A stretch of DNA of 64,000 nucleotides from an uncultured Bacteroidales bacterium (lineage in GTDB: Bacteria > Bacteroidota > Bacteroidia > Bacteroidales > UBA10428): NCBI GenBank assembly GCA_963800645.1, contig CAWDBX010000003.1, forward strand, positions 4,178 to 68,177, in the 5' to 3' direction. The notes under the pieces are model-generated. The model did no database searches, was not told the origin of the DNA, and saw nothing but the letters and a program-made list of their open reading frames with translations. This document shows positions 7,523 to 64,000 of this stretch, one piece after another (position 1 is the first letter of the stretch; each line of letters opens with the position of its first letter). Made by a program: the position numbers and the translations under genes.

Positions 7523-9109
7523 TTAATTGGTAAAGAAGAACAACATCACTGTTGCTGCTGTGGTGATGAAGAATCCCAGAGGCAGACTCAGCAGCAATAC
7601 CTGCCTGGCTTTCAGGGAACGGCCTTCCCATGTTGCTTTGATGTTACGGAGACTTATACCAGAGTCCTGTCAATATCAGCATAGCTTGAAACCATGGGAT
7701 ATACTGTGGAAGAAATTGATGCCATGGAATATTTGCCGTACCAAAAAAATCCCAGCCCCATCCAAACGGATCGGAAGCTGATTGGATAATGAAGGTCATA
7801 TTAACAAAGAGCATCGGAATTACAAAAGCAATCCATAGCATGAGTCCTAAAGGCAACAGTGATCCGGCAGATGCGAGAAATACCTCCCTGGTGCTGATAT
7901 TTATTTTTGATAACTCTGACTCCTGCCTTTGCAAGCAGATAGAGTATTCCTGGCATGATCATCAACACCAAAGACCACAGGACCAGTGAATAAATCCCAA
8001 ACAAATCCCAGTTATGCTTATCCAGAATATTCACATAATCACGAACAACTGGCCAGTGGTCCCAGGTACAAAATACTATAAATAATGGCAATTGTAAATA
8101 TTGCAATTGTCAGCCAGGCTTCACTCATATTACGAGTTCCACGTTCCGAGCCAAAAGGTCTTTTGAATATCGATACATTATTATATGAGCAACTTCGCGT
8201 GCATTCGAGACATAATCCGCAATCGGCATTCTCTTTCATTTCCCCCACATTTATTCCATAAGGGCATGCCCATCCTTTGCATTGCCTTTCTGGCAAAAAT
8301 GAGGTTTGCACTGGTCGCAAACCATCTGTGATTTATTCCTGACGGCCAGTATGCTCATTCCTGAAAATGGACCGACAAAAACACTGACCGGACAAACATA
8401 ACGGCAAAATGCCCGCAATTCCCAGATCAGGGCCATAAAAGTTGGAACCAGCAGCAGCATAAGTACAGTAATCCCTGAAATTCTTGGAGTTGCAACAAGA
8501 GTAGTGGAAAAGGTAGCCAGAATTAAAAAGACAATCAGTCTGAGCCAGTTGTTACTAAACCATTTTGGCCATTTCAGGAATAATCCTGAAAAATGGTTAT
8601 TATATTCTTTAGTCCTTCCCTTAAGGGGTGAAAAGAATGATCTGCGCTGGATCCAGTCGCCAAAAAAAGGCAAGGGACAGATAGTGCACCAGATTCTTCC
8701 GCCAAGCGGGGTCAAGAACTGCTATCAGCAGAAAAAGCCAGATCGCCCACATCATTAATACGCCAAGATTTCTGCCCGATACTTTAGTCCCAAATACTGA
8801 GGTCATAATTACAACATAAATCATTACCATTGCCAAAATGGTAAGGATAATCTGCGGCCATCTGGAAACAATGATTTTGCTGAAAAGACCGGATTTTTCA
8901 AACAAGTCTCTCATCTCATATTTCTTATCTCCTGTATTGTTTTCAGGGTCAGCCTTGCGGAAAATCCTAATAAGCCATAATAACAAAATCCCAGAAAGAC
9001 TTCCAAGACTGGAGAATAACAAGGTGTTTGGCAATATGATCAGCTTACCCTGTTCAAAAGCATGCATTGGACCGCACCAGACATGACAACGGTAATTGCT
9101 TTTTGCCAC
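7523..9109 (-). CDS. multi-pass membrane 4Fe-4S polyferredoxin (NapH/NosR/YccM-like); at least 5 frame breaks
   Basis: Fragments 8621..9109, 8251..8715, 8039..8320, 7801..8106 and 7644..7934, plus a hand-translated tail ..NIKATWEGRSLKARQVLLLSLPLGFFITTAATVMLFFFTN*. Cys clusters: CTICPLPFFG, FCRYVCPVSVF, CDQCKPHFCQKG, CGLCLECTRSC. Confidence 0.7.
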
Positions 9110-9617: not shown

Positions 9618-11027
9618 ATGGTGAAGGATAAAAATGGAAAGAAGAAAACCAGAAACAGGTACAAAGAATTTCATCATCTTCATACGTTATCATTGACCAT
9701 TTTTATTGGTATTCCACTTTTCTTTCCTAATTATCAGGCCCAGAAAGAGCGGTATGAGCATGGGTGAGGTACTTCAACGAAAAATGAACAGAACCAGTGA
9801 CTACAGATTCACTTCCGGAGGACAATTACATGGACAAATCTGGTTGGGGAAAAGATCGATTTTCTGGTATCCCAGCCTATCGGACAGACATTTACGGAAC
9901 CACCCATGATTTCTAATCTGGCGGTGGCAGATCTGGATGGTGATGGCCTCCTGGATATTATTGCCTGTGACACCAAAAACAATTTTGTTTCATGGATAAG
10001 GCAATATCCTGCCGGGACCTATACCGAAAAGATTCTGGCGGATGACTTGCTGGCGCCTGCCCATGCACAGGTCATTGATTTTGATAAAGATGGCGATAAT
10101 GATATTATGATTGCCGTGCTCGGGATGCTGTTTCCGTCCAATGACAAAATCGGTTCCGTGGTTATCCTGGAAAATACCGGGAAGAATCATTTCAGGAAAC
10201 ATGTGGTGGTGGAGAAAATTGCCCGTGTTTCGGATGTCAGGGCAGGTGATCTGGACGGTGACGGAGATATGGATCTTGCTGTTGCCCAGTTTGGTTATGA
10301 TGACGGGGAAACCCGGTGGATTGAAAACCTTGGTAACTGGAATTTTAAGAGTCATATTCTCCAGAATCTTTCGGGTCCTATTAATGTTGAAAATATTGAT
10401 ATTGATAACGATGGCGATCTGGATATCATATCCCTTGTGAGCCAGGAATGGGAAGAAATCTACTGCTTTATAAATGACGGCAAGGCGAATTTTCAGCTCA
10501 GGCTGCTGTGGGGATCCAGTAATGAAGACTTTGGTTCCAGCGGATTTATATGTATGATCTTAACCAGGATGGTAAAATGGACATTCTTTACACCAACGGT
10601 GATGCATTTGATTATATCCCGCCCCAGGGTCGACCCTGGCATGGCGTCCAGTGGCTTGAGAATAAAGGAAACCTGAATTTTGAGTTCCACCGGATCGTGT
10701 AATTTTATCGGTGCCTACAGCGTGCGTCCTGTTGATATTGATAATGACGGTGATCTTGATCTTTTTGCGGTAAGCGCATTTAATCTCTGGGAGAAACCCG
10801 AATCCCAAAGTTTTATCTGGCTTGAGAATACCGGCAACATGCAATTCAAGAAACACGACATTGCAAATTCACCCACCCATCTGGTTACTCTTGAATTGGG
10901 TGACTTCAATAATGATGGACTAATGGATTTCGTTACAGGAGGGATGCATGCATATCCCCCCTATGACCGCATGAGCAGGATAACATTGTGGATGAACAAC
11001 GGAATACTGCCCGCGGCAAAAAAATAA
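9618..11027 (+). CDS. FG-GAP/VCBS repeat protein (frame breaks near 9700-9900 and 10560-10680)
   Basis: Repeated Ca-binding-type motifs DLDGDGLLDII, DFDKDGDNDIM, DLDGDGDMDLAV, DIDNDGDLDII, DIDNDGDLDLF and GDFNNDGLMDFV in ORFs 9906..10676 and 10680..11027. N-terminal TM in the 9618 frame. Confidence 0.7.
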
Positions 11028-12526: not shown

Positions 12527-13039
12527 TTAGTGCGAGGACCATTTTACCAGAAAATTCCCAAACCGGTACACCAGGTCCGGGAATAATCCTTTGTGCAGGT
12601 CATGCGCTTCCTTCTTTCCCGAAAATCCCCTCGCAAAGCCCGGTCCGAAGATCTCCGTACCCAGTGCCAGGATCTTTTTTTCCCCTTCTTTCCCGATACG
12701 TTTCCTGAAATGGCTGAAGTCGCTGAAATAGAACGGCGCTTTATGCTGAAAATACACCTCCCCGCAGAAGTACTGCCAGTAGGGATTCTCGGTCCAGTGC
12801 GCCAATGCACTTTTATCGCTGTGCCTGTATACCTGCCGGAGCATGAGGAGACCTACCATGGTGCGGATGGGTACGGAAGGAGCCCCTTTCTGACTATAGT
12901 AACCGGCGAATTCCTTTTCAACTTGTAACCAGTCGGTATTCCTGACCCTTTTGCACAGATCGTGCCCGGGATCAATGAAATGAATCAGGGGAACCTCGGC
13001 AATATTCAGCTGCGGATTCCTGTCGGTTTTACCCAGCAT
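12527..13039 (-). mobile_element. IS5-family transposase N-terminal remnant (DDE catalytic part missing)
   Basis: PSVPIRTMVGLLMLRQVYRHSDKSALAHWTENPYWQYFCGEVYFQHKAPFYFSDFSHFRKRIGKEG matches the InsH-type N-terminal transposase domain. The ORF ends after ~170 aa against the DUF1080 gene. Confidence 0.7.
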
Positions 13040-17916: not shown

Positions 17917-19435
<1,519 letters not shown>

Positions 19436-21864: not shown

Positions 21865-22818
21865 ATGAGAATCGGTATTGACATTTTAGGCGGAGATTTT
21901 GCCCCGGAGGCAACTGTTTGTGGCTGCCATCCTGGCTGCAAAAAGTCTTCCGGCAGATGCACGTCTGGTACTGATCGGCGATGAAACCGGCATCCGGTCG
22001 ATTTGTCAGCGTGAAAATTTTGATCCTTCGGTGTTTGACATTGTTCATACTACCGAGTTTATTGATATGGGAGAACATCCGGCCAAGGCCTTTGTCCAGA
22101 AGCCAAATGCCAGTGTGGTGATGGGTTTCAAAATGCTTGCCCAGCAGTGAAATTGAAGGCTTTGCCAGTGCAGGCAATACCGGAGCCATGATGGTAGGAG
22201 CCATGCAGGTCATCAAATCCATTCCCGGTGTCATCCGTCCCTGTATCGCTGCCACCGTGCCCACGAACCGGAGAGAAGCCGCTGCTGCTGCTCGATGTGG
22301 GTCTCAATCCCGATTGCAACCAGGATGAACTCAATCAGTATGCCATTCTGGGAGATATCTATGCCCGTCAGGTATTGAATATTGCCTCGCCCCGTGTAGG
22401 TTTGCTGAATATCGGCGAAGAGGAAGGCAAGGGAAATCTGGTTACCAAGGCAGCCTATCAGCTGATGAAAGATTCCCCGTTATTTAATTTTATTGGTAAT
22501 GTCGAAGGGAGTGATTTGTTTGGCGATAAGGCCGATATCATGGTATGTGACGGATTTGTGGGCAATGTCATGCTCAAGGAGGCTGAGGCCTTTTATACCA
22601 TGATCAGGAAGCGGAAAATCGTGGATGATTTCTTTGAGAAATTTAATTTTGTCAATTATGGCGGCACACCCATTCTGGGCATCAATGCTCCGGTGCTGAT
22701 TGCGCATGGCATTTCCAATGATGTTGCCATTAAAAACCTGATATTGCATACCGCAGAGGTTATTAAAGGAAATTTGTGCGAAAAAATTAAAGAAGCATTT
22801 AAAGAATGTCCCGAATAA
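21865..22818 (+). CDS. plsX: phosphate acyltransferase PlsX (about 3 frame breaks)
   Basis: [53 protein letters not shown] and [13 protein letters not shown] spread over ORFs 21899..22150, 22137..22328 and 22228..22818. Confidence 0.9.
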
Positions 22819-27610: not shown

Positions 27611-29155
27611 ATGTCGGCGCTTAAACCATCAGAAGTATCAAAGATTTTAAAACAACAACTACAGGGAATTGATACCAGGGCCCAGCTTGATGAGATCGGA
27701 ACGGTATTGCAGGTGGGTGATGGCATTGCCAGGATCTATGGCATGTCAAATGTTTGCTCCAATGAGCTGATCGAATTCGAAAGCGGGGTCCGCGGAATAG
27801 TGCTGAACCTCGAAGAAGACAATGTCGGAGCTGTTTTACTGGGTGCATCTGACAAGATCAAGGAGGGGGACACAGTGAAACGTACCGGCAGGATTGCTTC
27901 CATCAAGGTAAGCGAAGGCATGCTCGGCCGTATCATCAACACCCTGGGTGAACCCATCGACGCCAAAGGTCCGATTGTAGGAAAAACCTTACGAAATGCC
28001 TTTTGAACGTAAAGCGCCCGGCGTTATTTTCCGTCGTCCGGTGAACGAGCCCCTGCAAACAGGTATTAAGGCCATCGACGCCATGATCCCCATCGGAAGG
28101 GGACAGCGTGAGCTGATCATCGGTGACCGGCAGACCGGAAAATCATCCATTGCCATGGATACCATCATCAACCAGAAGGAATTTTACGACAGGGGAGAAC
28201 CTGTTTATTGCATCTATGTAGCCATCGGACAAAAAGGATCCACGGTGGCCAACATCGCCAAAACACTGGAGAACTTATGGTGCCATGCCTTATACCGTTA
28301 TTGTGGCGGCTACAGCTTCCGATCCGGCTGCCTTGCAGTTTTATGCCCCATTTGCCGGTTGCTGCCATCGGAGAATATTTCAGGGACACCGGCCGTGCAG
28401 CGCTGATCATTTATGACGACCTTTCCAAACAGGCCGTTTCGTACCGTGAAGTTTCACTGCTGCTTCGCCGTCCCCCGGGACGTGAAGCCTATCCGGGTGA
28501 TGTATTTTACCTGCATTCCCGTTTGCTGGAACGTGCGGCCAAGATCATCAACAACGATGAGATCGCCGCCAGGATGAATGACCTGCCCGATTCGATAAGA
28601 CCTATCGTCAAGGGAGGTGGTTCACTCACCGCACTGCCCATTATTGAAACCCAGGCAGGTGACGTTTCAGCCTATATCCCCACCAACGTGATCTCCATCA
28701 CCGACGGACAGATATTCCTCGAAACCAACCTCTTCAACTCCGGTATCCGGCCGGCTATCAACGTAGGGATATCAGTATCCCGCGTGGGTGGATCCGCCCA
28801 GATCAAATCGATGAAACGGGTTGCCGGTACCCTGAAACTCGACCAGGCCCAGTTCCGTGAACTGGAAGCCTTTTCAAAATTCGGTTCCGACCTCGATGCT
28901 GCAACCCTGGCGGTGCTCGATAAAGGATCCAAGAACGTGGAAATCCTGAAACAGCCCCTGCACAGTCCCTTTTCCGTTGAAAAACAGATTGCCATTATTT
29001 TTTGTGGAACCCGCGGCCTGCTTGCCGAAGTTCCTGTAGATAAGATCAAGGAATTTGAGGAAGAATTTCTGAGTCTTCTTGAACTCAAACATAAAAACAT
29101 TCTGACTACACTGAAAGAAGGCAAACTGACTGAAGAAATTGAGAAGCAAACCTGA
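27611..29155 (+). CDS. atpA: F0F1 ATP synthase alpha subunit (at least 2 frame breaks)
   Basis: [47 protein letters not shown] (Walker A), [46 protein letters not shown] and [23 protein letters not shown]. Confidence 0.93.
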
Positions 29156-29231: not shown

Positions 29232-30118
29232 ATGGCCAACCTTAAAGAAATACGGATTCGTCTGAATTCGGTGAAATCGACCCGGCAGATCACCAGTGCC
29301 ATGAAAATGGTATCGGCTGCCAAACTGCGCAAGGCACAGGAATCGATTCTTCAGCTCAGACCGTTTTATGTCAAACTGGATTCGCTGATAAAACACGTTA
29401 ATGCCGGATTAGAGGAGGGTCATGAAAATATCTTCGGCCGGACAAACGATGCCGGCCGTGTGCTGATCGTGGTCATTACTTCCAACAGGGGCCTTTGCGG
29501 AGCCTTTAATGCGAACATTGTGAAAAGGACAATACAGTGCATCCATCAGCAATATGCGGAAGCGTACCATGCCGGGAAACTGGATATCATTGCCATCGGG
29601 AAAAAGGGCGCTGACCAGCTCAAATCAAAGAACTACAGGATTGCGTCCACCCACCACCAGCTGTTTGACAAACTGAACTTTGAACAGGCGGTGCAGCTGG
29701 CCAACGTCAGCTCATGGATGATTTCGTCAAAGAAAAATACGGTATTATAAAGCTTATTTACAATCAGTTCCGAAATGCTGCCGTACAGGACGTTGCGGAG
29801 GAATTTTTCCTTCCCCTGCTGCAAAGCCATGAAACAGAAGACCGGTATGAATCACGGATGGATTATATTTTCGAACCCTCCGAGACCGAAATTCTGGATG
29901 AAATGATCCCCTATACCCTGAGAATTCAGTTTTTCAGAGCCCTGCTCGAATCGAATGCCTCAGAACACGGGGCCCGTATGACCGCCATGCATAAGGCCAC
30001 CGACAATGCCACAGAACTCATCCGTGAACTTGAACTCCATTACAATAAAGCCCGTCAGGCCGCTATCACCAGCGAGATCCTCGAAATTGTGGGAGGAGCT
30101 GAAGCCCTGAAGAAGTGA
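29232..30118 (+). CDS. atpG: F0F1 ATP synthase gamma subunit (one frame break near 29720)
   Basis: [49 protein letters not shown] and [21 protein letters not shown]...[15 protein letters not shown]. Confidence 0.9.
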
Positions 30119-52215: not shown

Positions 52216-52812
52216 ATGAAAAAAACCTTTTCCGTAAACCTTGGCAACAGAGTTTACAGCATCGATGACGATGCATACAACAAATTGAAGGAATATCTTG
52301 ACCGCATTGAAAGCTATTTTTCCGATCAGAAAGAACGGGAGGATATCATCAACGATATCGAGACACGGATATCGGAGCTGTTTGCTGAGCGGTTAAGTGT
52401 TTCCAAGCAGGTAATTACGCTGAATGATGTGACTGACGTCATAAAAATCATGGGCGATCCCCAGGAAATCAGTGGTGCCGGGGAAAAACCAACTGCTGAA
52501 CCCGAAAGAAGCACCGGACCACGCAGAATCTACCGTGACCCCGATGACAGGATGATCGGCGGCGTTTGCAGCGGCCTGGGTGCCTACCTGGGCATCGATC
52601 CGCTGATCATGCGTATTCTGTTTATTTTGTTCTTTGATATTCGGAATCGGACTGCTGGTCTACATCATCTTATGGATCGTGGTCCCGGAAGCCAGAACCA
52701 CAGCTCAAAAACTTGAAATGCGAGGCGATCCGGTAAATGCCTCCAATATCGGAATTTCGTAAAGGACGAATTTGAAAATGTAAAAAAGAACTTCCTCAGG
52801 AACAAGAAATAA
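52216..52812 (+). CDS. PspC domain protein (frame breaks near the 3' end)
   Basis: RRIYRDPDDRMIGGVCSGLGAYLGIDPLIMRILFILF, then LLVYIILWIVVPEARTTAQKLEM in a shifted frame. Confidence 0.75.
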
Positions 52813-52836
52813 TGAAAAGTAATAACGAAAAAACCA

Positions 52837-53142
52837 ATGATCATGGACCTCGAAAATGTGAAAGCGCAAATGCGAAAAGGAGTATTGGAGTTCTGCATAC
52901 TGTCTATACTCTCAAAAGGTGATGCTTATGCAACCGATCTGCTGAACAAGCTGAAAGAATCGGAACTGATCGTGGTGGAAGGGACCTTATATCCTCTGCT
53001 GACACGGCAAAAAAATGCCGGATTTTTAAGCTACCGATGGGAAGAATCCACCCAGGGCCCGCCAAGGAAATACTATGCCCTTACCGACAAGGGAAGAGAA
53101 GTGCTGAAAGAATTGCAGGCCTCGTGGAAAGAGACTTATTGA
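52837..53142 (+). CDS. PadR family transcriptional regulator
   Basis: Intact: KGVLEFCILSILSKGDAYATDLLNKL...VEGTLYPLLTRQKNAGFLSYRWEES...PRKYYALTDKG. Confidence 0.9.
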   Translation: MIMDLENVKAQMRKGVLEFCILSILSKGDAYATDLLNKLKESELIVVEGTLYPLLTRQKNAGFLSYRWEESTQGPPRKYYALTDKGREVLKELQASWKETY

Positions 53143-53194
53143 CTCTGTTGATTCGATTGTTGAACCAATAATCAAAATTCTAACAACATAAACC

Positions 53195-54732
53195 ATGAAA
53201 AAGACATTACAAATCAATATTGGCGGCCGTCATTTTCATATCGATGAAGATGGATACAGCAAACTTAACCATTATCTTGATTCCCTCAAATCTCATTTTT
53301 CCGCAGAAGGGTGAATCGGGAAAGGAGATCGTGGAGGATATTGAACAACGGATTGCCGAATTGCTGGAAAACAGGATCACACCGGTAAAACAAGCCATTT
53401 CACTTGGAGGATGTGCAGGAAATCATTGGCATTCTTGGGCAAGGTAGAGGATTTCGTGTATAACGGCACAGCTGGATGAAGAATCGAAGCAGGATCATGA
53501 CGGACCGCAGGGATAAGCGCCGGTTTTTCCGCGACAGCGAAAGGGGATACCTGGGAGGTGTTTCTGCCGGCCTGGGAGAGTATTTCAATATTGATCCCCT
53601 GTGGATCAGACTGGCCTTTATGGCCTTTATGTTTCTCAAAGGGCTTGGGTCTTCTTATTTATGTCATTCTCTGGATCGTTGTGCCCAAAGCACGCACCAC
53701 GGCTGAAAAGCTTCAGATGAAGGGCATGCCGGTAAACCTTTCGACCATCAAGGAATCGGTGAATGCCGAATACGATAAGGTCAGATCCAGTTTTGAAGGC
53801 ATCGACAAATCCTCCGCAGCAGAAAAGACCCGAAGTGCCTTGAAAATATCATGAGGGCCGATGGGTCTGGTTTATTGTCGCCATTTTCAAATTCCTTATC
53901 GCGGCCATCGGCATATTCGTTCCTGGTCATTGGTTCCATTTTTCTTGCGGTCCTGATCATGATATTGCTTGGATTTTCCAATGTTTTAGGCCATCTCCAG
54001 ATCTGGAACGGGATCAACCTGCCGGATTTCTCCCATCTGTTTGCTTCCTCGGGACACTATTATCTTTTGTTATTTCCTTTGTCATCTGGTATTGATCCCG
54101 ATCGTGGCATTATCTACGGCGGCATAAAGATCCTTTTCAATATCAAAACGAAACACCCATGCTCAGGGCTTTTGTGCTCACCGCATGGATCCTGGACCTG
54201 ATCTTAGTTTTAGCCTCATCATCATTAACAGTACAAATTATGCCGTGGGGGCAACGGGTACACAATCGGCCGCAATTCATCAAAACCAAAAAAGAACGCG
54301 TGAATTTATCTGGATGTGCGCGACAACACCGAAAATAAAAAAATAACCAGTGTACAGTGTATTTGACCTACGAATTCAATTACAGTGAACGGGATGAGTC
54401 CTTGTATTCCAAACCTGAACTGGTCATTGAACAATCAGAGGATGACAAAATGGACATGACCGTTGAAAGAGCGCGTAAAAAATGTGGCCATTGAAAAATT
54501 CCCAGCAATATTTCGATCGGATAGAATACCAATGGGAACAAGATGATTCTGTGATTTATCTAAACAAGTACTTTAGCACCGATGGTGAAGATTTCTGGAT
54601 GTTCCCGGAAGTAAACCTCAAATCAAGGTTCCCGAAGGCCAGGTGATCATGATCTCCGAGGAGGTCTGTGATATGCTTGAAACCACCGGCATTACGTTAC
54701 TGCAAGACAGTTTGCTCGGGAAAGAAATGTAA
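53195..54732 (+). CDS. second PspC domain protein, heavily frame-broken
   Basis: MKKTLQINIGGRHFHIDEDGYSKLNHYLDSLKSHF parallels the N terminus of 52216. RRFFRDSERGYLGGVSAGLGEYFNIDPLWIRLAFMAFMF is the PspC domain. IYVILWIVVPKARTTAEKLQM follows. Confidence 0.6.
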
Positions 54733-54844: not shown

Positions 54845-54915
54845 TGTCCGATGGTGTAATGGTAGCACTGCAGATTTTGGTTCTGCCTGTCCAGGTTCGA
54901 ATCCTGGTCGGACAA
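54845..54915 (+). tRNA. tRNA-Gln (anticodon UUG)
   Basis: Hand-folded cloverleaf: acceptor tgtccga/tcggaca, D stem gtgt/gcac, anticodon stem gcaga/tctgc with loop ttTTGgt, and T arm ccagg-ttcgaat-cctgg. 71 nt, no encoded CCA. Confidence 0.9.
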
Positions 54916-54928
54916 CCCTCCCAATAAC

Positions 54929-54953: not shown

Positions 54954-55081
54954 TCATTATTTATTCCTTCGACATTCGTTTTTGTTGCGCATCCATGGCA
55001 GTCGCATGGCCAATTTCACGGTATTTTTAATTACCGGTAACAGAAACAAAGCTTGGTAGATATAATAAAGTCAATAAAAAT

Positions 55082-55116
55082 CCGCCACCAGAAATGGCTT
55101 ATACACGTTGGCGGCA
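55082..55116 (-). other. degenerate attC-like remnant at the tRNA-proximal end of the array
   Basis: The plus strand ccgccaccagaaatggcttATACACGTTggcggc shares the ATACAC-GTT arm with the sites at 55578-55703 and 58098-58120. Only a short ccgcca/tggcgg stem remains. Confidence 0.3.
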
Positions 55117-55577: not shown

Positions 55578-55703
55578 CGTTAACGTCCGCGTGTATGAGC
55601 CGTTGCGTGATCAGGGCGCTATATTATCGAGGTAGCACAAGGTAATTAAAATAGCTGACTTGGCAAACCCACGACCAGCAATGGCTTATACACGCTGTTA
55701 GGC
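55578..55703 (-). other. attC-like imperfect palindrome (126 bp)
   Basis: The plus-strand arms cgttAAC-gtcc-GCGTGTATGAGCC and GGCTTATACACGC-t-GTTaggc are complementary, apart from a 3-nt bulge and one mismatch. In gene orientation it reads GCCTAAC...GTTAACG, which fits RYYYAAC at the 5' core. Confidence 0.55.
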
Positions 55704-55731
55704 AACGTAATTTACTAATAATATTTCTCAA

Positions 55732-56313
55732 TTATATTTTTGTAATAACCAAGAAGCCTTCAGCCATGCCATCTCTAAATACTACGCCCTTATTTTTGTT
55801 AACGTCTTTAGGGTCTCTAAATGAAATTGCACACAAATAAGAATCATCCTTAAATCGACAAAATATTCCATCAATTTTTGTAATTGGTTCTCCCTTTGGA
55901 ACGATTACTAACGTAGATCCTCGTAAAATCTTAGATAGATATTTTTTGCAGTTCTCAATAGAAATGGGAGGACAGATATCTTCACAAGTAATTCGTGTAA
56001 ATAATGAACCATATCGAAAACCTCTTGCCAAATCTGATTCACCATATATTTCAGGATTTTCATTAAAAGCAGTAGCAATTATCTCAGCATCAGCATCGGA
56101 ATAAATTAATCGAGCTACTTGATAATTCTCATTTGCTGATTTAGTGAAGTAATACTCTGCCTCGGAGTTTTTTAATAAAAAACGGAGTTTTTTCAATAAT
56201 TCATAAGCCATCCCGGTTTTTTTAGGCTTTGAAGAATAATGAATGAAAAGCGCAACAATTGATCCAATTATTACGCCCCCTATTCCACCGAATATGACAT
56301 TTAGCCAATCCAT
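55732..56313 (-). CDS. hypothetical protein with an N-terminal TM helix
   Basis: Intact 193-aa ORF (MDWLNVIFGGIGGVIIGSIVALFI...). No motif recognised. Confidence 0.55.
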   Translation of the reverse strand: MDWLNVIFGGIGGVIIGSIVALFIHYSSKPKKTGMAYELLKKLRFLLKNSEAEYYFTKSANENYQVARLIYSDADAEIIATAFNENPEIYGESDLARGFRYGSLFTRITCEDICPPISIENCKKYLSKILRGSTLVIVPKGEPITKIDGIFCRFKDDSYLCAISFRDPKDVNKNKGVVFRDGMAEGFLVITKI

Positions 56314-56375: not shown

Positions 56376-56613
56376 GCCTAACACGCTCACAGAAGCGGGT
56401 CTTCCGCTTCTATGCATCTAAACTTGGGGGCATAAAAGCAGTTATTCTGGTTTTTACTGACTGTTATATTTCTCACTGGGCAAAGCTGGACTCGTACTCG
56501 AAAAATAGTCTAATTCTCAAACAATTCCAAATATTTGAAGTGTCTGGGTTTTCTAATCGTCTTTTAGTATTCAGCAAGGCAGTGCGACCTAAGCAACTTG
56601 AAGCAAAAGGCAG
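56376..56613 (-). repeat. conserved non-coding element R, copy A
   Basis: Aligns almost base for base with 57860-58097 and 60367-60574, and in part with 62311-62435. In gene orientation it ends ..gagcgtGTTAGGC, 63 nt before the ATG at 56313. Confidence 0.85.
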
Positions 56614-56900
56614 GGAGGAATTGGATCATCTGCTTTCTACAGACCGAGTTTCTTTCGCCTGGCCTACTTTTCAGCTTTTGCCTATTTCTGATCTGTAGCG
56701 TACTCTTTGTCATGCCAGGAAAACCATTCTTTTAAGGAAGGTAAGGTGATATCACAATTTTCAATTATTAATTTCCCCAGGATTCTCCCCTACCGATCAG
56801 GTCCATGGCTTTTTAAATCCCGAGAACAACCACCAACGGCACCTTTCCTGGTAATCCATTTTATGAAAGTCATTGGTATGGTTTTTAGTTTTTTTGCGCG

Positions 56901-56966
56901 ACAAAACGTCCGTGGGTATAGCCTGTCCCGACAAGTCGGGACAGGTTATACAACCGGGCGTTGTGT
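56901..56966 (-). other. attC-like imperfect palindrome (66 bp), 11 nt downstream of the stop codon of ORF 56978..57637
   Basis: The plus strand acaaAAC-gtcc-GTGGGTATAGCCTGTCCCGAC-aa-GTCGGGACAGGTTATACAACCGGGC-GTTgtgt is palindromic over almost its whole length. Confidence 0.55.
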
Positions 56967-56977
56967 GTGGTTCAAAA

Positions 56978-57637
56978 TCATTTTCCAAAATATTGTCCAA
57001 GTAAAAACGCGCCACTTATCATTCCTGTTAGGGCAACAAGAATTGCCCAAAATTGAGATGGTTTTAAACCTTTAACAAGTTCTCCAATAGTTAATGTAGA
57101 AGGATCGATATTTTTAGCATTCAATGCGGCAATTTGTTTATTGTATTGATAGTCTTCAACTTTTTTCTTCCAACTAGAAAGAACACCATTAAATTCAGGA
57201 GTATATAAAGAAGAATTATCTAGCTTGACCCTTAATATATACCAATCATGACCTTGTTCAATTAATCCCTCATTTTTTAATCCTTCTTCAATGATAAGCA
57301 TTATGGGCAGTCCTTTAGAATATGCCATTGCTGCCTCAATTTGATTCCAAGGCGTAGGAAACTTTACATCGCTTAATGTGGATTCCAGAGCGCCTCCTCT
57401 TTTTTCTATCCCCGTTGGAAAATATGTTCTTTCCAAGGCAATTATAATGGTGCCTGAACACCCATCCAGCAACTCTACAATAGTCTTAAGAGGTGAGTCA
57501 CAACTAAACTTGTTTCGACCTACTGTGTTGGGTATTAAATTTTCGCTTTTTAATCTTAATTCGATAGCACTTACAAAGGACTCTTGCTTTTCATTTGCTG
57601 TACCTCCAACACTAATAAATATATTATGTTCTTTCAT
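56978..57637 (-). CDS. TIR-like / nucleoside 2-deoxyribosyltransferase-like Rossmannoid domain protein with a C-terminal TM anchor (family call tentative)
   Basis: From the ATG at 57637: IFISVGG, GTIIIALERTY, TPWNQIEAAMAYSKGLPIMLIIEEG, and the C-terminal helix FWAILVALTGMISGAFLLGQYF. The ORF-track start at 57724 is a TTG. Confidence 0.5.
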   Translation of the reverse strand: MKEHNIFISVGGTANEKQESFVSAIELRLKSENLIPNTVGRNKFSCDSPLKTIVELLDGCSGTIIIALERTYFPTGIEKRGGALESTLSDVKFPTPWNQIEAAMAYSKGLPIMLIIEEGLKNEGLIEQGHDWYILRVKLDNSSLYTPEFNGVLSSWKKKVEDYQYNKQIAALNAKNIDPSTLTIGELVKGLKPSQFWAILVALTGMISGAFLLGQYFGK

Positions 57638-57859
57638 ATTAGGATTATATAAGGGTTCTCTATAACAAAGTAAATTTTTAATCTTTTCTCTATTGTTTTG
57701 TGAATGATCTAATTCCAAGAGCAATTCTAATAATCGACAAATACTAATTTTAATAAACTGTTGAAAAGCATTTAATCAAATCTATCATTTCTATCCATAT
57801 TTGCTTAAGTAAAAATTATGCTAGTTAGATGAGTTAGTATCTTGGATGTAATCAATCAC

Positions 57860-58120
57860 ATACAACACGCTCCTAGAATCGGGTCTTCCGCTTCTATGCA
57901 TCCAAACTTGGGGGCATAAAAGCAGTTATTCTGGTTTTTACTGACTGTTGTTTTTCTCACTGGGTAAAGCTGGACTCGTACTCGAAAAATAGTCTAATTC
58001 TCAAAGAATTCCAAATATTTGAAGTGTCTGAGTTATCTAATTGTATTTTAGTATTCAGCAAGGTAGTGCGACCTGAGCAACTTGAAGCAAAAGGCAGTTG
58101 GCGTATACACGCTGTTGTGA
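57860..58120 (-). repeat. conserved non-coding element R, copy B, joined to a half attC-like arm (58098-58120)
   Basis: The same consensus as copy A up to gaagcaaaaggcag, then ttggcgtATACACGCTGTTgtga, which matches the right arm of the 55578-55703 site. Confidence 0.85.
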
Positions 58121-58268
58121 ATGATTTTTGAATCAACCAGATGAACCTCGATAATAAGCACAGTCATAATTCAAAGCTAGCCATGCTGGGGTTAGTTGGA
58201 CACACTGCTGAGCGTAAATGTCAGGCAATATTAAATGAGCAATCTTATCCATGTCGGGATACAATGCG

Positions 58269-59363
58269 TCAATTATTCCTGGCAAGTTCACGTACAATTG
58301 AATTAAACTTTTCAACTTCTTCCATATTTGGACTGTGCGCAGATTGTTCAAAGATAAAGAACTCCTTTGCAGGTGCTTTCAATTGGTTAAAAAAATCTTT
58401 AGCAACTGGATAAGGTGTCTGGTAATCATATAAACCCTGAAGAATATAAACAGGAACCTGCATGCTATCAATTTCACTGAAAAGATTAGTATTGATTACC
58501 TCTGGCCATAAGTACTTGACTGAAAATTCACTGCCTTTCAAGTAGTCGATTTTTTCCTTCATTGTATATTCATGAGTAAGAAAAATCATTTTAACCAAGG
58601 GCAATATTCCCTTCATTTCATGAGTTGCGCCACCACCAAACTTCATAACGTAATTTCTCTCAATAGCAAGGAATTCATCCCAGTCAGCGTTGCTCGCAAG
58701 TGAATCCGGGAAATTCAGATTAGCCAATTCATTCATGGCCTTTTCATCATGATGTAATTGAGCCTGGTCTTTAGCCCATTCAAATGAAACAAGTTCTCCC
58801 TTATATTGATGTGCTATTTGGCCAATACCAAAATAGGCATGAAAAAGTTCAGGGTATTTATTAGCTGTTAAAATCGCAAGTAGAGACCCCCAAGAATGCC
58901 CCATGATGTAAATCTTGTCTTTTTTGAATCGCTTGATAAGGTATCGGCTAAGTTCACCCGCATCTTTAATAAATTGATTCAAATTCATTGACTCAGATGG
59001 CACATTAGAATGATAGGATTTTCCTGCTCCCCTTTGTTCCCAGTAAACCATTACGAAGTCGTTTTCAATTAATCGGTTTGTTTCTTTCATCATTCCAATT
59101 TCAGGCCCCCCCGGACCCCCATGAACAAACAACATTACTGGTTTAGTTGTATCAGCACCTCGAATGAATACATACTGTTTCAAGCCTCCAATTCGAACTG
59201 TATCGATAACTGAAATGCTGTTTGGGATTGTCTCACCGTTCTTATTTGTTATTGGGTCTGCTTTCCCTGGGCTATTAATCCACCATACTGTTACTAAGCT
59301 CAAGATTAGGAAAAAGAATGCAGAGATTATGTAAAGAATCACCTTTAATACTTTTCTTTTCAT
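58269..59363 (-). CDS. alpha/beta hydrolase (proline-iminopeptidase-like) with an N-terminal anchor
   Basis: Intact 364 aa: LFVHGGPGGP (oxyanion loop) and IMGHSWGS (nucleophile elbow). Confidence 0.8.
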   Translation of the reverse strand: MKRKVLKVILYIISAFFFLILSLVTVWWINSPGKADPITNKNGETIPNSISVIDTVRIGGLKQYVFIRGADTTKPVMLFVHGGPGGPEIGMMKETNRLIENDFVMVYWEQRGAGKSYHSNVPSESMNLNQFIKDAGELSRYLIKRFKKDKIYIMGHSWGSLLAILTANKYPELFHAYFGIGQIAHQYKGELVSFEWAKDQAQLHHDEKAMNELANLNFPDSLASNADWDEFLAIERNYVMKFGGGATHEMKGILPLVKMIFLTHEYTMKEKIDYLKGSEFSVKYLWPEVINTNLFSEIDSMQVPVYILQGLYDYQTPYPVAKDFFNQLKAPAKEFFIFEQSAHSPNMEEVEKFNSIVRELARNN

Positions 59364-59651
59364 GTAGGATAACTATTTCAATGTTTATTCAAACTTATTA
59401 CAAAATAGTCTTGTTTCCAATCCCAAGTCCAAATTAGCTGTGGAAATGGAAATTCTCCGCCATTAGAATTTGTCTGCGGGCTAGTTTCAATTTTTAGTTC
59501 TGATTACTTAATTTGTTACAAACTATAAGCGAACACAAACTTCTCCACCGGTTCAAAACTGTCCGCTGGCACCTTTTTGATTCCAGTTATTTTTTTGTCG
59601 AGTAAAATCTTGTCGGGTTCAATGTTATTGTCCATGAGCCAGCCCAATTAC

Positions 59652-59785
59652 CGCCAACGTTTGCGGGTATTTGGCGTTGCCTGGTTCAGGGCGCATACTT
59701 GTCCGGTTACACCAATGGAACTAAAAAGAACCGATACCCGAAAGAGCACTTCGCCGGCAATGACATATATCCGGTGTTGTAGGCA
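59652..59785 (-). other. attC-like site candidate (134 bp)
   Basis: The plus strand cgccAAC-gttt-GCGGGTATtt ... acATATATCCGGT-GTTgtag has the same arm layout as the other two sites, but with weaker L-box pairing. It lies 90 nt after the stop codon of ORF 59874..60311. Confidence 0.35.
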
Positions 59786-59873
59786 GTGTTTTTCTTTCTT
59801 TAGATTCTTCGTCTGTAATGCAGTTGCGTTAGCCCTGTGTTGTTGCTTTGTAGAGTTTTGTCAATATATTACT

Positions 59874-60311
59874 TCATTGAGTCAATTTGTTCTTTAATTC
59901 AACTGATAAGTTTTCATCTGTCAAAACCATTGTCGCATCTTGGCAATATTGCGTTTTTCCGAGATATTGTTCGTATCCCGATGTCTTAATTGTGGTAAAC
60001 TCTACCCACTCATTATTCTCTTGTGATAGAAATTCACCACATAAAATAAAAATCTTTTCGTTGTTTGGTGATGTTATGTAGCCAATTTTTACTTTACGGA
60101 AATCAATGGGTGCCGGTGGTTGATGATTACGAAAATCAGCAGCAGCCGAAGTAATTAAAAACTGAACAATGGTATCAGGTATGACTTCTTTTTCAGAAGT
60201 TGCTGTTGAACTGTCTTTGGTCTCTGTTTTATTGTTGCAACTCATGATTGCTGACATAAAAAATATGAAAGCAAATATTTTTAGCGTGTTTTTTAAAATT
60301 TGTGTGGTCAT
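59874..60311 (-). CDS. hypothetical lipoprotein
   Basis: Intact ORF with lipobox-like AIMSC after a hydrophobic signal. ATG at 60311 (the ORF-track start at 60323 is a TTG). Confidence 0.55.
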   Translation of the reverse strand: MTTQILKNTLKIFAFIFFMSAIMSCNNKTETKDSSTATSEKEVIPDTIVQFLITSAAADFRNHQPPAPIDFRKVKIGYITSPNNEKIFILCGEFLSQENNEWVEFTTIKTSGYEQYLGKTQYCQDATMVLTDENLSVELKNKLTQ

Positions 60312-60366
60312 TTTTTTATACAATTAATTCTTTTTTCCTGTCGTTTTGAGTGGTCTCTAGCATTGC

Positions 60367-60574
60367 CTGCAACACGCTCCTAGAAGCGGATCTTCCGCTT
60401 CTATGCATCCAAACTTGGGGGCATAAAAGCAGTTTTTCTTGTTTTTACTGACTGTTATTTTTCTCACTGGCAAAGCTGGACTCGTACTCGAAAAATAGTC
60501 TAATTCCCAAAGAATTCCAAATATTTGAAGTGTCTAAGTTTTCTAATAGTCTTTTAGTATTCAGTAAGGTAGTA
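60367..60574 (-). repeat. conserved non-coding element R, copy C
   Basis: The consensus as above. Its upstream edge touches the methyltransferase stop codon (60575-60577). In gene orientation it ends ..gagcgtGTTGCAG. Confidence 0.85.
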
Positions 60575-61414
60575 TTATTTTTGTGATACATAAAAAGTCA
60601 CATTTTCTCCATTCCAATAATCATCACTTTCTGGTAATACATTTTCGTAATTCCTAATATGGGTAAAACCCTTTGATTCAAGAATCCTGGTCAAATCATT
60701 TTTTTCATAATAATGACTCCAAAAAATGTATGAATCAACCGTATCATTATCTCCAACTACCGTGTGATGCTCCACAAGTACCTTGGCTTCCGGATAATGG
60801 TATCCGTTTGTCAGAACAATATAGGGTGTGTTTTTCCAAAATCCACTTTTTTGTACTTCCCAGGATGGTGACATAATTTTCTTATCCAGGTTTCTTTCGT
60901 TTACCACATCACAGATAAATAATCCATCTTTCTTTAATGCTTTATAAATGTTTTCTAGAACCTTATCCCTTTCATCCGGCACCAGGACACAAAAATCCAG
61001 ATAAATCAAGATGACCAGATCAAATTGATTTTCAAAGTCCAAATCCAAATAATCTTTATTGAGATACTCAATGTTTAGTTGATTTAGTTTTGCATGTTGG
61101 ATTGCGTATTGAATCGAATTTTCAGAAATGTCAACACCAATTACCGAATGTCCCTTTTTTGCAAGTAATTCTGCATAAAGTCCCGGCCCACAACCTAAAT
61201 CAAGAATTCTCATGTTAGGTTTATTGGCCCTTTCTACAATCCAATTTGAAATATTTTCAATTTTTGATTTACTTCTGCTTGCTACATCATGGTCCGGGTT
61301 CGTATGTAATGCTAATAATTGTTTCGATAGGTATGGGTCTGTCCACATAACCGATGAACCTTTTTCATACAATTCAGGCTTGTCCGATAGCTTTTTTATT
61401 AATTCAATATCCAT
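60575..61414 (-). CDS. class I SAM-dependent methyltransferase
   Basis: Intact 279 aa: ILDLGCGPGLYAELLAKKGHSVIGVDIS (motif I and post I) and LKKDGLFI. Confidence 0.85.
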   Translation of the reverse strand: MDIELIKKLSDKPELYEKGSSVMWTDPYLSKQLLALHTNPDHDVASRSKSKIENISNWIVERANKPNMRILDLGCGPGLYAELLAKKGHSVIGVDISENSIQYAIQHAKLNQLNIEYLNKDYLDLDFENQFDLVILIYLDFCVLVPDERDKVLENIYKALKKDGLFICDVVNERNLDKKIMSPSWEVQKSGFWKNTPYIVLTNGYHYPEAKVLVEHHTVVGDNDTVDSYIFWSHYYEKNDLTRILESKGFTHIRNYENVLPESDDYWNGENVTFYVSQK

Positions 61415-61612
61415 GGTATGGTTAGGTAATTGGTTTTCTATGCTGGCAGCAAAGACGGTGGCAATATTAAAAGTTGGGGGGTTCGGAGCGATTCGCTATT
61501 AAGATACACAGACCTTGATGCGAGCTACAACTCCTTGAATAATCTATTAAATCCCAATTTTTTATATTGCGTGTTAGCAACCGTGCTTTATTGATTTTTC
61601 CAGGCTTTTACT

Positions 61613-62266
61613 TTAATTGTATCGATCTAATTGTTTATTTTTTACCATTTTAACCGTTTCGATCGCAAGAGTAATTAAACTAATGAGAATCCAAACTGAC
61701 AATATCAAAGTTGCGAGTAGGCTGAAAGAGAAGTCAATATCAAACTGAAATTGTTGCTGTTGGAATTTCCATTCTTGATCTTCCTTTACCATTATTCCAG
61801 TTAAACGCAAAGGAATGACCAGAAATTTTGACAGATCAAATTTAACATAGCCTTTAGTCGAGAACCATGCAGTATTTCCCAATGATGAAATGTTTGCACT
61901 ATCAACTTCAAATTTGCAATCACCCCAAGATTCCCAATCTGTTTCTACTAATCTGGTTGCATTTTCATAGCCACTGTATATTTCATTAGGCATTGTCCCA
62001 AGAATCAGTATATTTTCTCTGGAATAAAGTGATTGCATAAAAGTGTCAATGTTCTTTGGATCACGTTTAGAATAACCATCCTGAAACTTTTGTAATTGAC
62101 AAATTATTTCCATTCTTGTACTATCAGGGGCATTGCCCTTAGAAAAAGTAGATTTTACCGGGAATAAAATTGTTTTCTCATCAGCCCTTTTAAATACCCT
62201 GGTTACAAGAAAAAGAACAAGGAGCAGCAATACTATTCTTAAAAAAATTCTAAGCATGACTTTCAT
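61613..62266 (-). CDS. membrane-anchored protein with a possible NTF2/SnoaL-like domain
   Basis: Intact 217 aa with N- and C-terminal TM helices. The central part (FQDGYSKRDPKNIDTFMQSLY...AWFSTKGYVKF...GIMVKEDQEWKF) resembles the NTF2-like fold pattern. Tentative. Confidence 0.45.
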   Translation of the reverse strand: MKVMLRIFLRIVLLLLVLFLVTRVFKRADEKTILFPVKSTFSKGNAPDSTRMEIICQLQKFQDGYSKRDPKNIDTFMQSLYSRENILILGTMPNEIYSGYENATRLVETDWESWGDCKFEVDSANISSLGNTAWFSTKGYVKFDLSKFLVIPLRLTGIMVKEDQEWKFQQQQFQFDIDFSFSLLATLILSVWILISLITLAIETVKMVKNKQLDRYN

Positions 62267-62310
62267 ATGATCATTTTATTTTACTGATAGCTGGCAAAGG
62301 GAACTATTTA

Positions 62311-62435
62311 GCATTGTTGCTGACAATCATAGAAGCGGGTCTTCCGCATCTATGCATCTAAACCTGGGCGCACAAAAACAGTTATTCTGGTGTTTACTGA
62401 CTGGCATTTTTCTCACTGGTAAAGCTGAAGCAGTA
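62311..62435 (-). repeat. conserved non-coding element R, copy D (shorter, more diverged)
   Basis: Matches the gene-proximal ~110 nt of copies A-C (catagaagcgggtcttccgcatctatgcatctaaacctgggcgcacaaaaacagttattctggtgtttactgactgg...ttctcactggtaaagctg). It abuts the stop codon at 62436. Confidence 0.75.
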
Positions 62436-62678
62436 CTATCGGGGTTCATTACTTTTGCCATCCTGCAGTTTTTCATTTATTTCATTTAATTTCTTTAATA
62501 TTTCCTTGTTTGAACTTCTATTTGCAGCACCCATTAGAATTATTTTAACAGAGACCAATAAAACCCCAGCTTCAAGCAATAAATCTTTTGTAAAACCAGT
62601 TGCAAAAAGTGCTATAATAAAAAGAATAAACGTTAATGCAATGGTAATCGCGTTGCCTAAGTCCATGTTTCTTATCAT
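62436..62678 (-). CDS. small two-TM hypothetical protein
   Basis: 80-aa ORF: AITIALTFILFIIALFATGF and LLEAGVLLVSVKIILMGA. Confidence 0.4.
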   Translation of the reverse strand: MIRNMDLGNAITIALTFILFIIALFATGFTKDLLLEAGVLLVSVKIILMGAANRSSNKEILKKLNEINEKLQDGKSNEPR

Positions 62679-62739: not shown

Positions 62740-64000
62740 TTATGATGTTTTAAAAAATTTTCGCCTAATCCATTTCTCAAAACCTATAATGATCAGAATT
62801 GAGAAAGCGACACAAGCTGATAAGCCCCAGGCATCAAAATATAAAGGAGACGATTTAAATACCTGGTTCATAAAGGGAAGATAAACAAAGGAAACCTGAA
62901 CGAGTAATACTGTTGCTATTCCCAGGTATATCGAAGGATTGGAAAACAGTCCTATATTACTGGCGGAGTATTTTAAAGACCGGCATTCGATAAGATAAAA
63001 CACCTGGAATAAAACCATAGCAGTTACAGCCATTGTTTGTGCTTCCGAAAGAGCCAGTGCTGTATCCGTTCCCCTGGCAAGTTCAATATTGTATTCCCAA
63101 AGAAACAGGCCAATGGTTCCACCTGCCATTATAATGGATACCAATATGATCCGGAAAGTGACGAAGGGCGTAAATATCGATTTGCCGGGTATTCTTGGAG
63201 GGCGTTTCATGATATCAGGCTCCATTGATTCCATTGCCAGGGGAAGTGCAAGCGCAACAGCTGTGATAAGGTTAATCCATAAAACCTGAACCGGTAACAT
63301 TGGAAGGAGTACAATCCCATCTTTTGAAGGGAAAAACAACACCGCTAAAAATACGACCAACCCTAAACCTATACTGGTAGGCAAAAGAAATATAATGGAT
63401 TTTAAAAGGTTGTCGAATACTCTGCGTCCTTCTTCAACAGCGGCTTCAATACTCTCAAAGTTATCATTAACCAAAACCATGTCGGCAGCTTCCTTGGCCA
63501 CGGCAGTACCTGTAATACCCATTGCAACCCCTATATCTGCGCGCTTTAAAGCAGGTGCATCATTTACGCCATCGCCGGTCATGGCAACAACTTCTCCATG
63601 CGCCTGCAATGCCTAACAATATTCAGCTTGTCTTCGGGCGATACCCGTGCGATAATGTTTGTGTTTCTAATCGCTTCCGACAACTGTTCAGGACTCATCA
63701 GTTGAAGGTCTCTTCCCGTTAGAACCTGACCGGCATTTTTGAATCCAAGCTCAGTGGCTATAATCGAAGCAGTTGCAGGATGGTCACCCGTGATCATTTT
63801 TACGGTTATACCTGCATTATGACATGTCTCAATGGCCTTTTTAACTTCACTTCGCGGAGGGTCGCTCATGGCCTGAATTCCAATAAAATCGAAATGGCAA
63901 AGATCTTCATCGGTAATAAGGCCGGCATGTTCGCCAGGCAACCATTTGGAGGCTATCGCTAAAACCCTCATCCCGGTTTCAGCAAGTTGTATCACCTCAC
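62740..64000 (-). CDS. P-type cation-transporting ATPase (P2-type, Ca2+/Mg2+-like), C-terminal part; 5' end beyond the window, one frame break near 63600
   Basis: [39 protein letters not shown] (hinge motif), [14 protein letters not shown] and C-terminal TM helices, in fragments 63579..63995 and 62740..63609. Confidence 0.88.

Follow-up and report, generated by a model that had tools for sequence, protein, structure and literature searches.

Can the cassettes of an integron array be joined at sites that are not attC sites by their structure? The question is raised by a contig of an uncultured Bacteroidales bacterium (GenBank assembly GCA_963800645.1, contig CAWDBX010000003.1), of which we analysed a stretch of 64,000 nucleotides (nt), called the window throughout. 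A cassette array of roughly 7.7 kb lies there at 54.95-62.7 kb on the minus strand, which is the gene orientation used below. Its distal border is a tRNA-Gln gene (54845-54917, plus strand), and on its other side is a P-type ATPase gene, with the 3' end nearest to the array. Inside this array is a non-coding repeat, which we name E and whose copies we call A, B, C and D. We tentatively interpret E, with a confidence that falls somewhat short of even, as a non-coding module that, at its conserved 3' end, serves or until recently served as a non-canonical site of integron recombination. At every second junction of this integrase-less array it probably takes the place of a normal attC, and comparison with related loci indicates that it has replaced the normal attC of at least two genes, a methyltransferase and a hydrolase, whose ancestral cassettes are known from other metagenomes. 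E is best classed with the sites at which integron cassettes are joined, though in structure it is not an attC. The evidence comes from four copies in a single contig of a metagenome-assembled genome (MAG), the only contig in which E was found, and no relative of E is known from the collections that we searched.

One fixed end at the cassette crossover

E is present four times, as direct copies that are all on the minus strand. A repeat search of the window returned them at 56379-56479, 57863-57963, 60370-60470 and 62319-62419, with A and B extending to 234 nt and A, B and C having a further 105 nt in common. A degenerate pattern of the 30-nt core matched these four places only (0 matches expected, from 100 shuffles), and an nhmmer profile built from the four copies found only A-D in the window, with E-values of 1e-40 to 1e-75. 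The same four loci are those that a first-pass annotation, made from the letters alone, had described as conserved non-coding copies. Pairwise identity is 93.9% between A and B, 92.5% between A and C, 93.5% between B and C, and 83.8-85.7% between D and the others. Copies A (56376-56613) and B (57860-58097) are full length, C (60367-60574) is about 30 nt shorter at its 5' end, and D (about 62315-62440), which is the most diverged, comprises the 3' 125 nt only. The 3' end of the copies is fixed and their 5' end variable, for an overall span of 125-238 bp; counted up to the crossover G described below, A, B, C and D measure 231, 231, 201 and 116 nt. A central block of 60 nt is near-invariant in the alignment of A-C.

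The array also has an ordinary attC family of its own, homogeneous and about 128 nt long, with the consensus RYYYAAC-AGCGTGTATAAGCC...GGCTCATACACGC-GGAC-GTTRRRY (also given as RYYYAAC-AGCGTGTATAAGCCATTGCTGG...GCAACGGCTCATACACGC-GGAC-GTTRRRY). This family fills two long arrays of Bacteroidales MAGs, L001 (GCA_016926235.1) and L008 (GCA_040961665.1), which were reached via homologues of the window cassettes; the closest relatives of these cassettes are in Bacteroidales MAGs. A covariance model of the family, R1, was built from 26 sites and scores the true sites of the window at 126, 97, 32, 10.6 and 10.1 bits. They are the canonical attCs that end the cassettes of a 193-amino-acid (aa) open reading frame (ORF), ORF193 (55578-55704, 126 bits), of the 149-aa ORF149 (59652-59783, 97 bits) and of a SnoaL-like ORF (61450-61580, 32 bits), the decayed last attC of the array, which adjoins the tRNA-Gln gene (55008-55114, 10.6 bits), and a short attC of another type, 66 nt long and with a clean hairpin in folding, which ends the cassette of a 219-aa ORF (56901-56967, 10.1 bits). 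All are on the minus strand. Since R1 scores far higher on this strand (126 bits, against 21 bits on the plus strand), minus is the top strand, as the gene orientation also implies. The canonical sites fold as one long hairpin when treated as single-strand DNA. The SnoaL site has a T for the G at its crossover (61450-61454; C-TTTGCTG, compared with G-TTAGCT in contig L007), so this junction may be fixed. No integron integrase was found in the window by tblastn with an IntI1 query, and no recombinase among the roughly 45 window ORFs scanned against Pfam; with no integrase detected in the window, the array is an attC cluster without an integrase there.

The fixed end of E lies where the next cassette starts. 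It reads GAGCGTG-TT(A/G) in A-C and GATTG-TC in D (the hyphen before the T marks the crossover), which bears out both the end noticed in the first-pass annotation and the divergence of D that it reported. The sequences at the end are GTTAGGC in A, GTTGTAT in B and GTTGCAG in C, and D has a degenerate GTC. The crossover G is at 56382 in A, followed by the TTAGGC that starts the cassette of ORF193 (55732-56313); at 57866 in B, followed by the TTGTAT that starts the cassette of the 219-aa ORF (56978-57637); at 60373 in C, ahead of ORF149 (59874-60323); and at 62324 in D, where the degenerate triplet continues with TC ahead of the SnoaL-like ORF (61613-62266) and where the array has its first junction. 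From this G to the next start codon there are 68 nt in A, 141 or 228 nt in B, 49 or 61 nt in C and 57 nt in D. The four cassettes that come after E are unrelated to each other and self-contained.

A rule that can be read in L008 makes the position of the crossover more precise. The first 10-13 nt of a cassette, counted from the G of G-TT, complement the bases that end at the AAC of its own attC; in the window this holds at 10-12 of 13 positions, which is handy for pairing cassette starts with sites. The cassette starts that follow E complement the attC of their own cassette at 10/13 (SnoaL, behind D), 11/13 (ORF149, behind C), 11/13 (219-aa ORF, behind B) and 12/13 (ORF193, behind A). The cognate score is the best in every row of the comparison, with non-cognate pairs mostly at 2-8 and a few at 9-10, and for all four cassettes the complementarity begins exactly at the terminal G-TT of E. 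A further argument comes from the SnoaL cassette, which in contigs L009 and L010 starts with G-TTAGCAACAATGCTAAATA after normal attCs; the identical start follows copy D in the window. These comparisons show the fixed end of E to be a genuine crossover point for cassettes. E therefore goes with the DNA upstream of it and not with the downstream ORF, and it is not part of the downstream cassettes, which begin after it. As a separate observation on the SnoaL leader (62267-62324, compared with L009 270-430), roughly 100 nt of L009 and L010 seem absent from the window, where the ORF starts 5 codons earlier.

The location of the boundary also bears on whether E might be kept for gene expression, as a terminator or stabiliser for the upstream gene, as a promoter or leader for the downstream one, or as a small RNA, with its position at junctions being secondary. 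We regard this as quite unlikely. It is true that the ORF193, ORF149 and SnoaL cassettes have leaders of only 49-68 nt without a TAnnTTTG of their own (the Bacteroidota -7 motif, known from Bacteroides promoters), that the SnoaL leader appears to be missing the stretch just mentioned, that four single-base changes in predicted helices remain paired, as G-T, on the minus (sense) strand only, and that the 60-nt central block is nearly invariant in A-C. However, none of the copies has a TAnnTTTG, whichever strand is read, and E contains neither a sigma-70-like nor a terminator-like site, which led us to reject both a promoter and an intrinsic terminator. Folds of the whole element are not better than those of shuffled sequences (z = -1.04 for the minus strand, -0.36 for the plus strand), RNAalifold found no pair with a compensatory change in the four copies (four sequences give it little power), and comparison with Rfam returned no match to a known RNA family, a riboswitch or a fragment of a group II intron of the IIC-attC type, either at the gathering threshold or at E-values up to 10. 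The entire 5' half, with the invariant block in it, is missing from copy D, and conservation is uniform along E, which fits recent copies rather than constraint. The proposal, made in the first-pass annotation, of a cassette-borne promoter, leader or small RNA is not supported either, in view of the same motif, folding and Rfam results and of cassettes that begin after E.

The upstream side and the lost attC sites

In contrast to the fixed 3' end, the upstream edge is different in each copy, and in each case it is as the first-pass annotation had it. Copy C starts 2 nt past the stop codon (60575-60577) of an S-adenosylmethionine (SAM)-methyltransferase ORF (60575-61414), with a microhomology of at most 1 nt at the join. 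Copy D overlaps the stop codon (62436-62438) of an 80-aa ORF (62436-62678) without a Pfam match; this ORF and the ATPase gene are what lies upstream of D, and the covariance model detects no attC there. The 5' end of copy B is fused directly to the R''-L'' half of a canonical attC (TCACAAC-AGCGTGTATACGCC; 58098-58120, minus strand), with 93-94% identity to canonical sites. An intact attC, of the short type, precedes copy A alone, and between the two there are 287 nt of unique non-coding DNA (56614-56900) that matches nothing else in the window and nothing in the fetched loci. On this evidence, three of the four copies are joined to DNA whose own attC has been lost.

Two of the upstream genes have relatives that retain the attC. 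The methyltransferase cassette, whose own attC has given way to copy C in the window, occurs in 17 other contigs at 86-93% DNA identity, and in 14 of the 17 a canonical attC follows about 12 nt after the stop codon (ten Logan contigs, L012-L021, together with L005, L007 and two JGI/ENA types). The 5' half of the site is all that is found in L001 and L006, and L002 has none. The alpha/beta-hydrolase cassette upstream of copy B (ORF at 58269-59363) is 95% identical to L008 over 1.55 kb (58184-59734, against L008 9633-11180), and the L008 cassette has a full attC. In the window, the hydrolase cassette is followed instead by an inverted 78-nt piece, the R''-L'' half-site and copy B. The inverted piece (58114-58191) is on the plus strand, opposite to the hydrolase cassette, and is homologous to the 5' start of an ORF-less L008 cassette (7537-7613, 83% identity); its place beside the half-site suggests an inversion or a template switch at an attC. 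That L008 cassette (7527-7905) has a long GC-rich hairpin (CCACGAACG...GAAAACCGGG...CCCGGTTTTC..CGTTCGTGG) and no Rfam match at E-values up to 1. The hydrolase protein is at least 90% identical to a protein of a Chitinophagaceae genome (a cluster member, from Flavihumibacter fluvii). With matches in another MAG and in Chitinophagaceae, such cassettes seem to be shared widely within Bacteroidota.

An integrase crossover would have kept the upstream attC, so the upstream junctions of B, C and D cannot stem from such a crossover, and they look like ordinary deletions. Comparable decay is seen in related arrays. At 9928-10000 and 10841-10981, L001 carries a 37-nt mini-site (R''-L''-8 nt-R') and the 5' half of an attC without its 3' half, and L006 has the same decayed sites at the same positions relative to the methyltransferase. 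These half-sites and internally deleted attCs of L001 and L006 show that in this attC family cassettes are repeatedly fused when an attC decays.

Could these junctions have been produced by the assembly, through collapsed or expanded repeats or chimeric joins in a MAG contig? The many fragmented genes of the contig do suggest indel errors, and wrong joins inside E are conceivable where copies are identical to each other for up to about 60 nt. Nevertheless, we consider an artefact very improbable. Between copies, 6-16% of positions differ, and no two copies have the same left flank or the same right flank, so A-D are not assembly duplicates; this divergence, with the distinct flanks, counts against the collapse of the copies into one locus that the first-pass annotation had named as a possible refutation. 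Moreover, the right flanks follow the rule of complementarity between cassette start and R'', and a wrong join inside E could swap partners but could not create a junction of E with a stop codon or with a half-site.

The history that we propose for the locus involves 1) an integron integrase, which would have joined the attC of each incoming cassette to the ...GAGCGTG-TT end of E; 2) integrase-independent deletions, which would have produced the variable 5' side and removed the preceding canonical attC wholly (C and D) or by half (B); and 3) the welding, by these deletions, of the upstream gene to E, such that gene, E, cassette and attC may form one unit bounded by normal attCs. Units of this kind would give a strict alternation of E and attC. 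E does occupy every second junction of the array, and a perfect alternation of four E and four attC sites has a chance probability of 0.029.

The terminal unit and its possible modes of recombination

If the end of E was used by an integrase, what could the enzyme have recognised? Only the last roughly 88-95 nt of E can be drawn as a closed AAC...GTT structure, and this is branched rather than a single hairpin. The closed unit of roughly 88 nt (57863-57950 in B, 56379-56466 in A, 60370-60457 in C and 62321-62406 in D, all on the minus strand) consists of an inner (A/C)AAC-AGTC box, three small hairpins and the GA(G)C(G)TG-TT end. No truncation reaches it, and the shortest copy retains about 30 nt upstream of it. 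The strongest of the three hairpins, TAGAAGCGG-N5-CCGCTTCTA with the loop AAGAC, ends 8 nt before the crossover and reads TAGAAGCGG-AAGAC-CCG(A/C)TTCTA (57874-57896 in B, 56390-56412 in A, 60381-60403 in C and 62330-62352 in D, minus strand). The closing stem between AAC-AGTC and GA(G)C(G)TG-TT is paired at 8/8 positions in A, 8/8 in B, 8/8 in C and 7/8 in D. Copy D has GCC in place of AAC and GTC in place of GTT, which turns one A-T pair into G-C and breaks another; both bulged G are absent from this copy, and one G-C pair is now G-T. The candidate R'' boxes of A-C (ATATAAC, AAACAAC and AAATAAC), 86 nt upstream, pair at 8/8, in a stem that is not singled out energetically and with an AAC that is expected there by chance. 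Without the two inner hairpins, the terminal unit reads AAC, 6-nt spacer, 9-bp stem, 5-nt loop, 7-nt spacer and GTT, much like a minimal attC. Folding also confirmed the existence of the two mutually exclusive stems pointed out in the first-pass annotation.

Two routes to recombination can be envisaged. In the first, the site would be folded, with the last roughly 88-95 nt acting as a mini-attC whose 5' arm is interrupted by two extra small hairpins. The closing-stem data lend this route mild support. In the second, E would be used in double-strand form, as an attI-like landing pad. There are likenesses to attI: E has a defined sequence to the left of the crossover only, whereas any cassette may follow to the right, it would need no hairpin, and copy D heads the array, where an attI would be, beside non-cassette DNA. 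Yet E is present in four copies instead of one, there is no inverted AAC box within about 10 nt of the GTT, no adjacent intI was found by tblastn and no nearby recombinase in the Pfam scan, and D is itself truncated, which means that it is not the parent copy. For these reasons we rejected the identification of E with an attI, and the same copy number, missing intI and truncation count against the attI-like route.

The comparison with attC sites, including the repeats of Vibrio (VCRs), is similarly divided. Like them, E lies 3' of a gene, ends in G-TTRRRY exactly at a cassette boundary, has an upstream AAC box and a hairpin a few nucleotides from the crossover, and is repeated within one array. 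Unlike them, it has no single imperfect hairpin, no paired L'' and L' boxes around a central spacer and no evident extrahelical bases; its candidate fold is a four-way junction, the repeat runs 30-145 nt upstream of any candidate R'', and its copies are unequal in length. Folding E as single-strand DNA yields, on both strands, three separate small hairpins and no L''/L' pairing between arms. Membership in the array's attC family was rejected, as R1 has no match on the copies at E-values up to 10; its sole overlap with E is a 4-bit match on the plus strand (E-value of 5), which spans the 3' end of D and the beginning of the cassette behind it. A relation by sequence to the array attCs was rejected too, since local alignments are no better than those with shuffled sequence. 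The suggestion, from the first-pass annotation, of a long, array-specific attC family in the manner of VCRs can thus be kept as far as the fixed end is a crossover, and not beyond that, because a genuine attC family of about 128 nt is present in the array besides E, and E matches neither its model nor its sequence. Its statement that no canonical attC fold could be made agrees with the R1 and folding results on either strand.

A number of arguments weigh against E being a recombination site. First, no integrase was detected in the window, and recombination of E is a prediction. Second, the model needs three separate deletions next to E, in two cases no more than about 3 nt from a stop codon, an awkward coincidence that it does not explain. 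Third, the strongest hairpin has one uncompensated mismatch in B and one in D, which is in line with the earlier remark that the differences between copies break pairs rather than compensate, and with the RNAalifold result. Fourth, the closing stem is weak and is singled out by a duplex-energy scan in copy B only, the AAC about 86 nt upstream of the end is what chance would provide, and E lacks paired L''/L' boxes beside the R box as well as clear extrahelical bases. Fifth, the apparently covarying pairs include the TT and the next base, which are brought in by the incoming cassettes; the gap of 2 nt in D results from manual alignment (MAFFT aligns the end of D without a gap); and the presumed cassette start of copy A is complementary to the inner box at 8/13 positions only, within noise. 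Sixth, the assembly appears indel-prone, with many fragmented housekeeping genes, and no second genome with E was found. Going further, to the idea that E represents a second, undescribed class of integron recombination site, a branched, three-hairpin landing pad for integrases that welds a gene and the next cassette into a composite cassette when it displaces an attC, would in our opinion be unlikely to prove right.

Mobile elements, other origins and the search for relatives

The combination of one exact end with truncated copies is also what an attC-targeting mobile element might leave behind. E would then be a remnant end, e.g., the non-coding end with the seekRNA of an insertion sequence (IS) of the IS1111-attC type, a miniature inverted-repeat transposable element (MITE), or a one-ended copy of the rolling-circle or retro type. 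Its fixed end would be the terminus of the element, and its variable end a truncated insertion or the product of a later deletion. Several features fit: copies with a single exact end and 5' truncations to 231, 231, 201 and 116 nt, the direct contact of copy B with an attC half-site, an IS110-family transposase in a related array that carries the 219-aa ORF cassette, and the 9-bp hairpin 8 nt from the fixed end. Comparable hairpins near the end are borne by elements that are handled as single strands. Elements of the IS1111 family that insert at one attC end and have non-coding regions of 150-270 nt are documented (PMC11187229), and E resembles both them and the group IIC-attC introns (PMC3001079) in lying inside arrays at attC positions and in having a similar non-coding length, about 150-270 nt.

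We nonetheless hold a mobile-element origin to be improbable. Both ends of IS1111-attC elements and of group IIC-attC introns are defined, these elements code for a transposase or reverse transcriptase, and both halves of the attC survive their insertion; none of this applies to E. No copy keeps the 3' half of a target attC after its fixed end, where the next cassette starts exactly at TT. There is no inverted repeat between the ends of E and no target duplication; with one constant end only, E does not have the make-up of a MITE or an IS end. A candidate target-site duplication, AGCGTGT around copy B, was rejected, as the intervening 9 nt are not shared by copy A. Among the Pfam-scanned ORFs, the window has no transposase, reverse transcriptase or HUH gene, save for the fragment of an unrelated DUF772 ORF at 12.5 kb, Rfam gives no group II intron signal at E-values up to 10, and no copy of E is found outside the array in the 64 kb or in the public collections searched. 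The miniature attC-targeting element considered in the first-pass annotation therefore has no support from anatomy: terminal inverted repeats and target duplications are missing, one end alone is fixed, and every copy in the window is inside the array. A repeat of a diversity-generating retroelement was rejected as well, E being outside ORFs and the scanned ORFs including no reverse transcriptase.

A closer precedent for part of the history is found among clusters of attC sites without integrase (CALINs) with fused cassettes or decayed attCs (PMC9024848), where the attC between two genes has been lost and two ORFs travel as a unit. The difference is that each fusion described here has the same conserved module of 125-238 nt, with a crossover that looks functional, and not a simple scar.

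A coding origin of E was examined and rejected. On the plus strand there is an open frame of 73-78 codons, without a start codon and of a length that shuffled sequences reach with p of about 0.05; 11 of the 12 differences between A and B in this frame change the amino acid, and they are spread over all codon positions. Six-frame peptides of E match no Pfam family and have no homologue among 5.8 billion proteins. The possibility of a C-terminal integrase or transposase fragment in the minus frame had no support from Pfam or tblastn, and all differences change the amino acid there.

Relatives of E were sought with four degenerate DNA patterns from different parts of the repeat. The species-representative genomes of GTDB were scanned with two patterns, JGI metagenome contigs with two and viral contigs with one, and there was no true match in any of them; the lone match, in a Methylophilaceae MAG, is a chance one without interior similarity. 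Nothing was found by blastn against plasmids and phages, nor with the plus-strand open frame as a protein query, which could have caught spurious gene calls over E. Finally, 20 loci whose flanking cassettes are 86-95% identical to those of the window have no E (nhmmer and blastn). The wider search that the first-pass annotation had recommended has thus yielded no further copy in any of these collections.

Some other features of the array and of the window deserve mention. The array with the 219-aa ORF cassette in JGI sample 3300075153 has an IS110-family transposase and an IS3-type transposase pair inside. In the window, the P-type ATPase gene (62740-63995) has two overlapping frames near 63580-63610, either a frameshift or a sequencing indel, and the genes for ATP synthase subunits and PlsX (17969-18706, 22228-22818, 28208-29155 and 29232-29750) have only partial matches to their Pfam profiles. 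These fragmentary housekeeping genes suggest many frameshifts, and small indels of this assembly need caution. The first 2,000 nt of the window have a GC content of 0.70, compared with about 0.45-0.50 elsewhere, and carry a fragment of an S41 peptidase; they could be a chimeric contig end or foreign DNA. An ORF fragment with a DUF772 transposase domain (12527-13039) is an IS remnant unrelated to the array. Two tandem, diverged genes of the PspC/HAAS type flank a PadR regulator at 52216-53700 and are marked as paralogues by a 64-nt direct repeat (52261-52324 and 53240-53303, 72% identical). The window proteins also include, according to Pfam, a sorting domain of the type IX secretion system (T9SS) and a DUF4271 protein, which place the organism in Bacteroidota.

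How genes gain, lose and exchange their attC is an open question of integron biology, and the large cassette arrays of Bacteroidota have been little studied, complete-genome surveys having found very few of them (PMC9024848). In an array such as this one, attC finders based on homology or covariance models would miss half of the junctions. If E were only the decayed tail of a duplicated cassette, it would be ordinary, and it would still document the erosion of arrays that have no integrase. If E is an active site, the range of integrase substrates is wider, and the locus shows cassette fusion or attC swapping in progress. Were it even a second class of site, it would offer a visible route for the replacement of attC sites and for the building and re-tooling of cassettes, the least understood step in the life of integrons.

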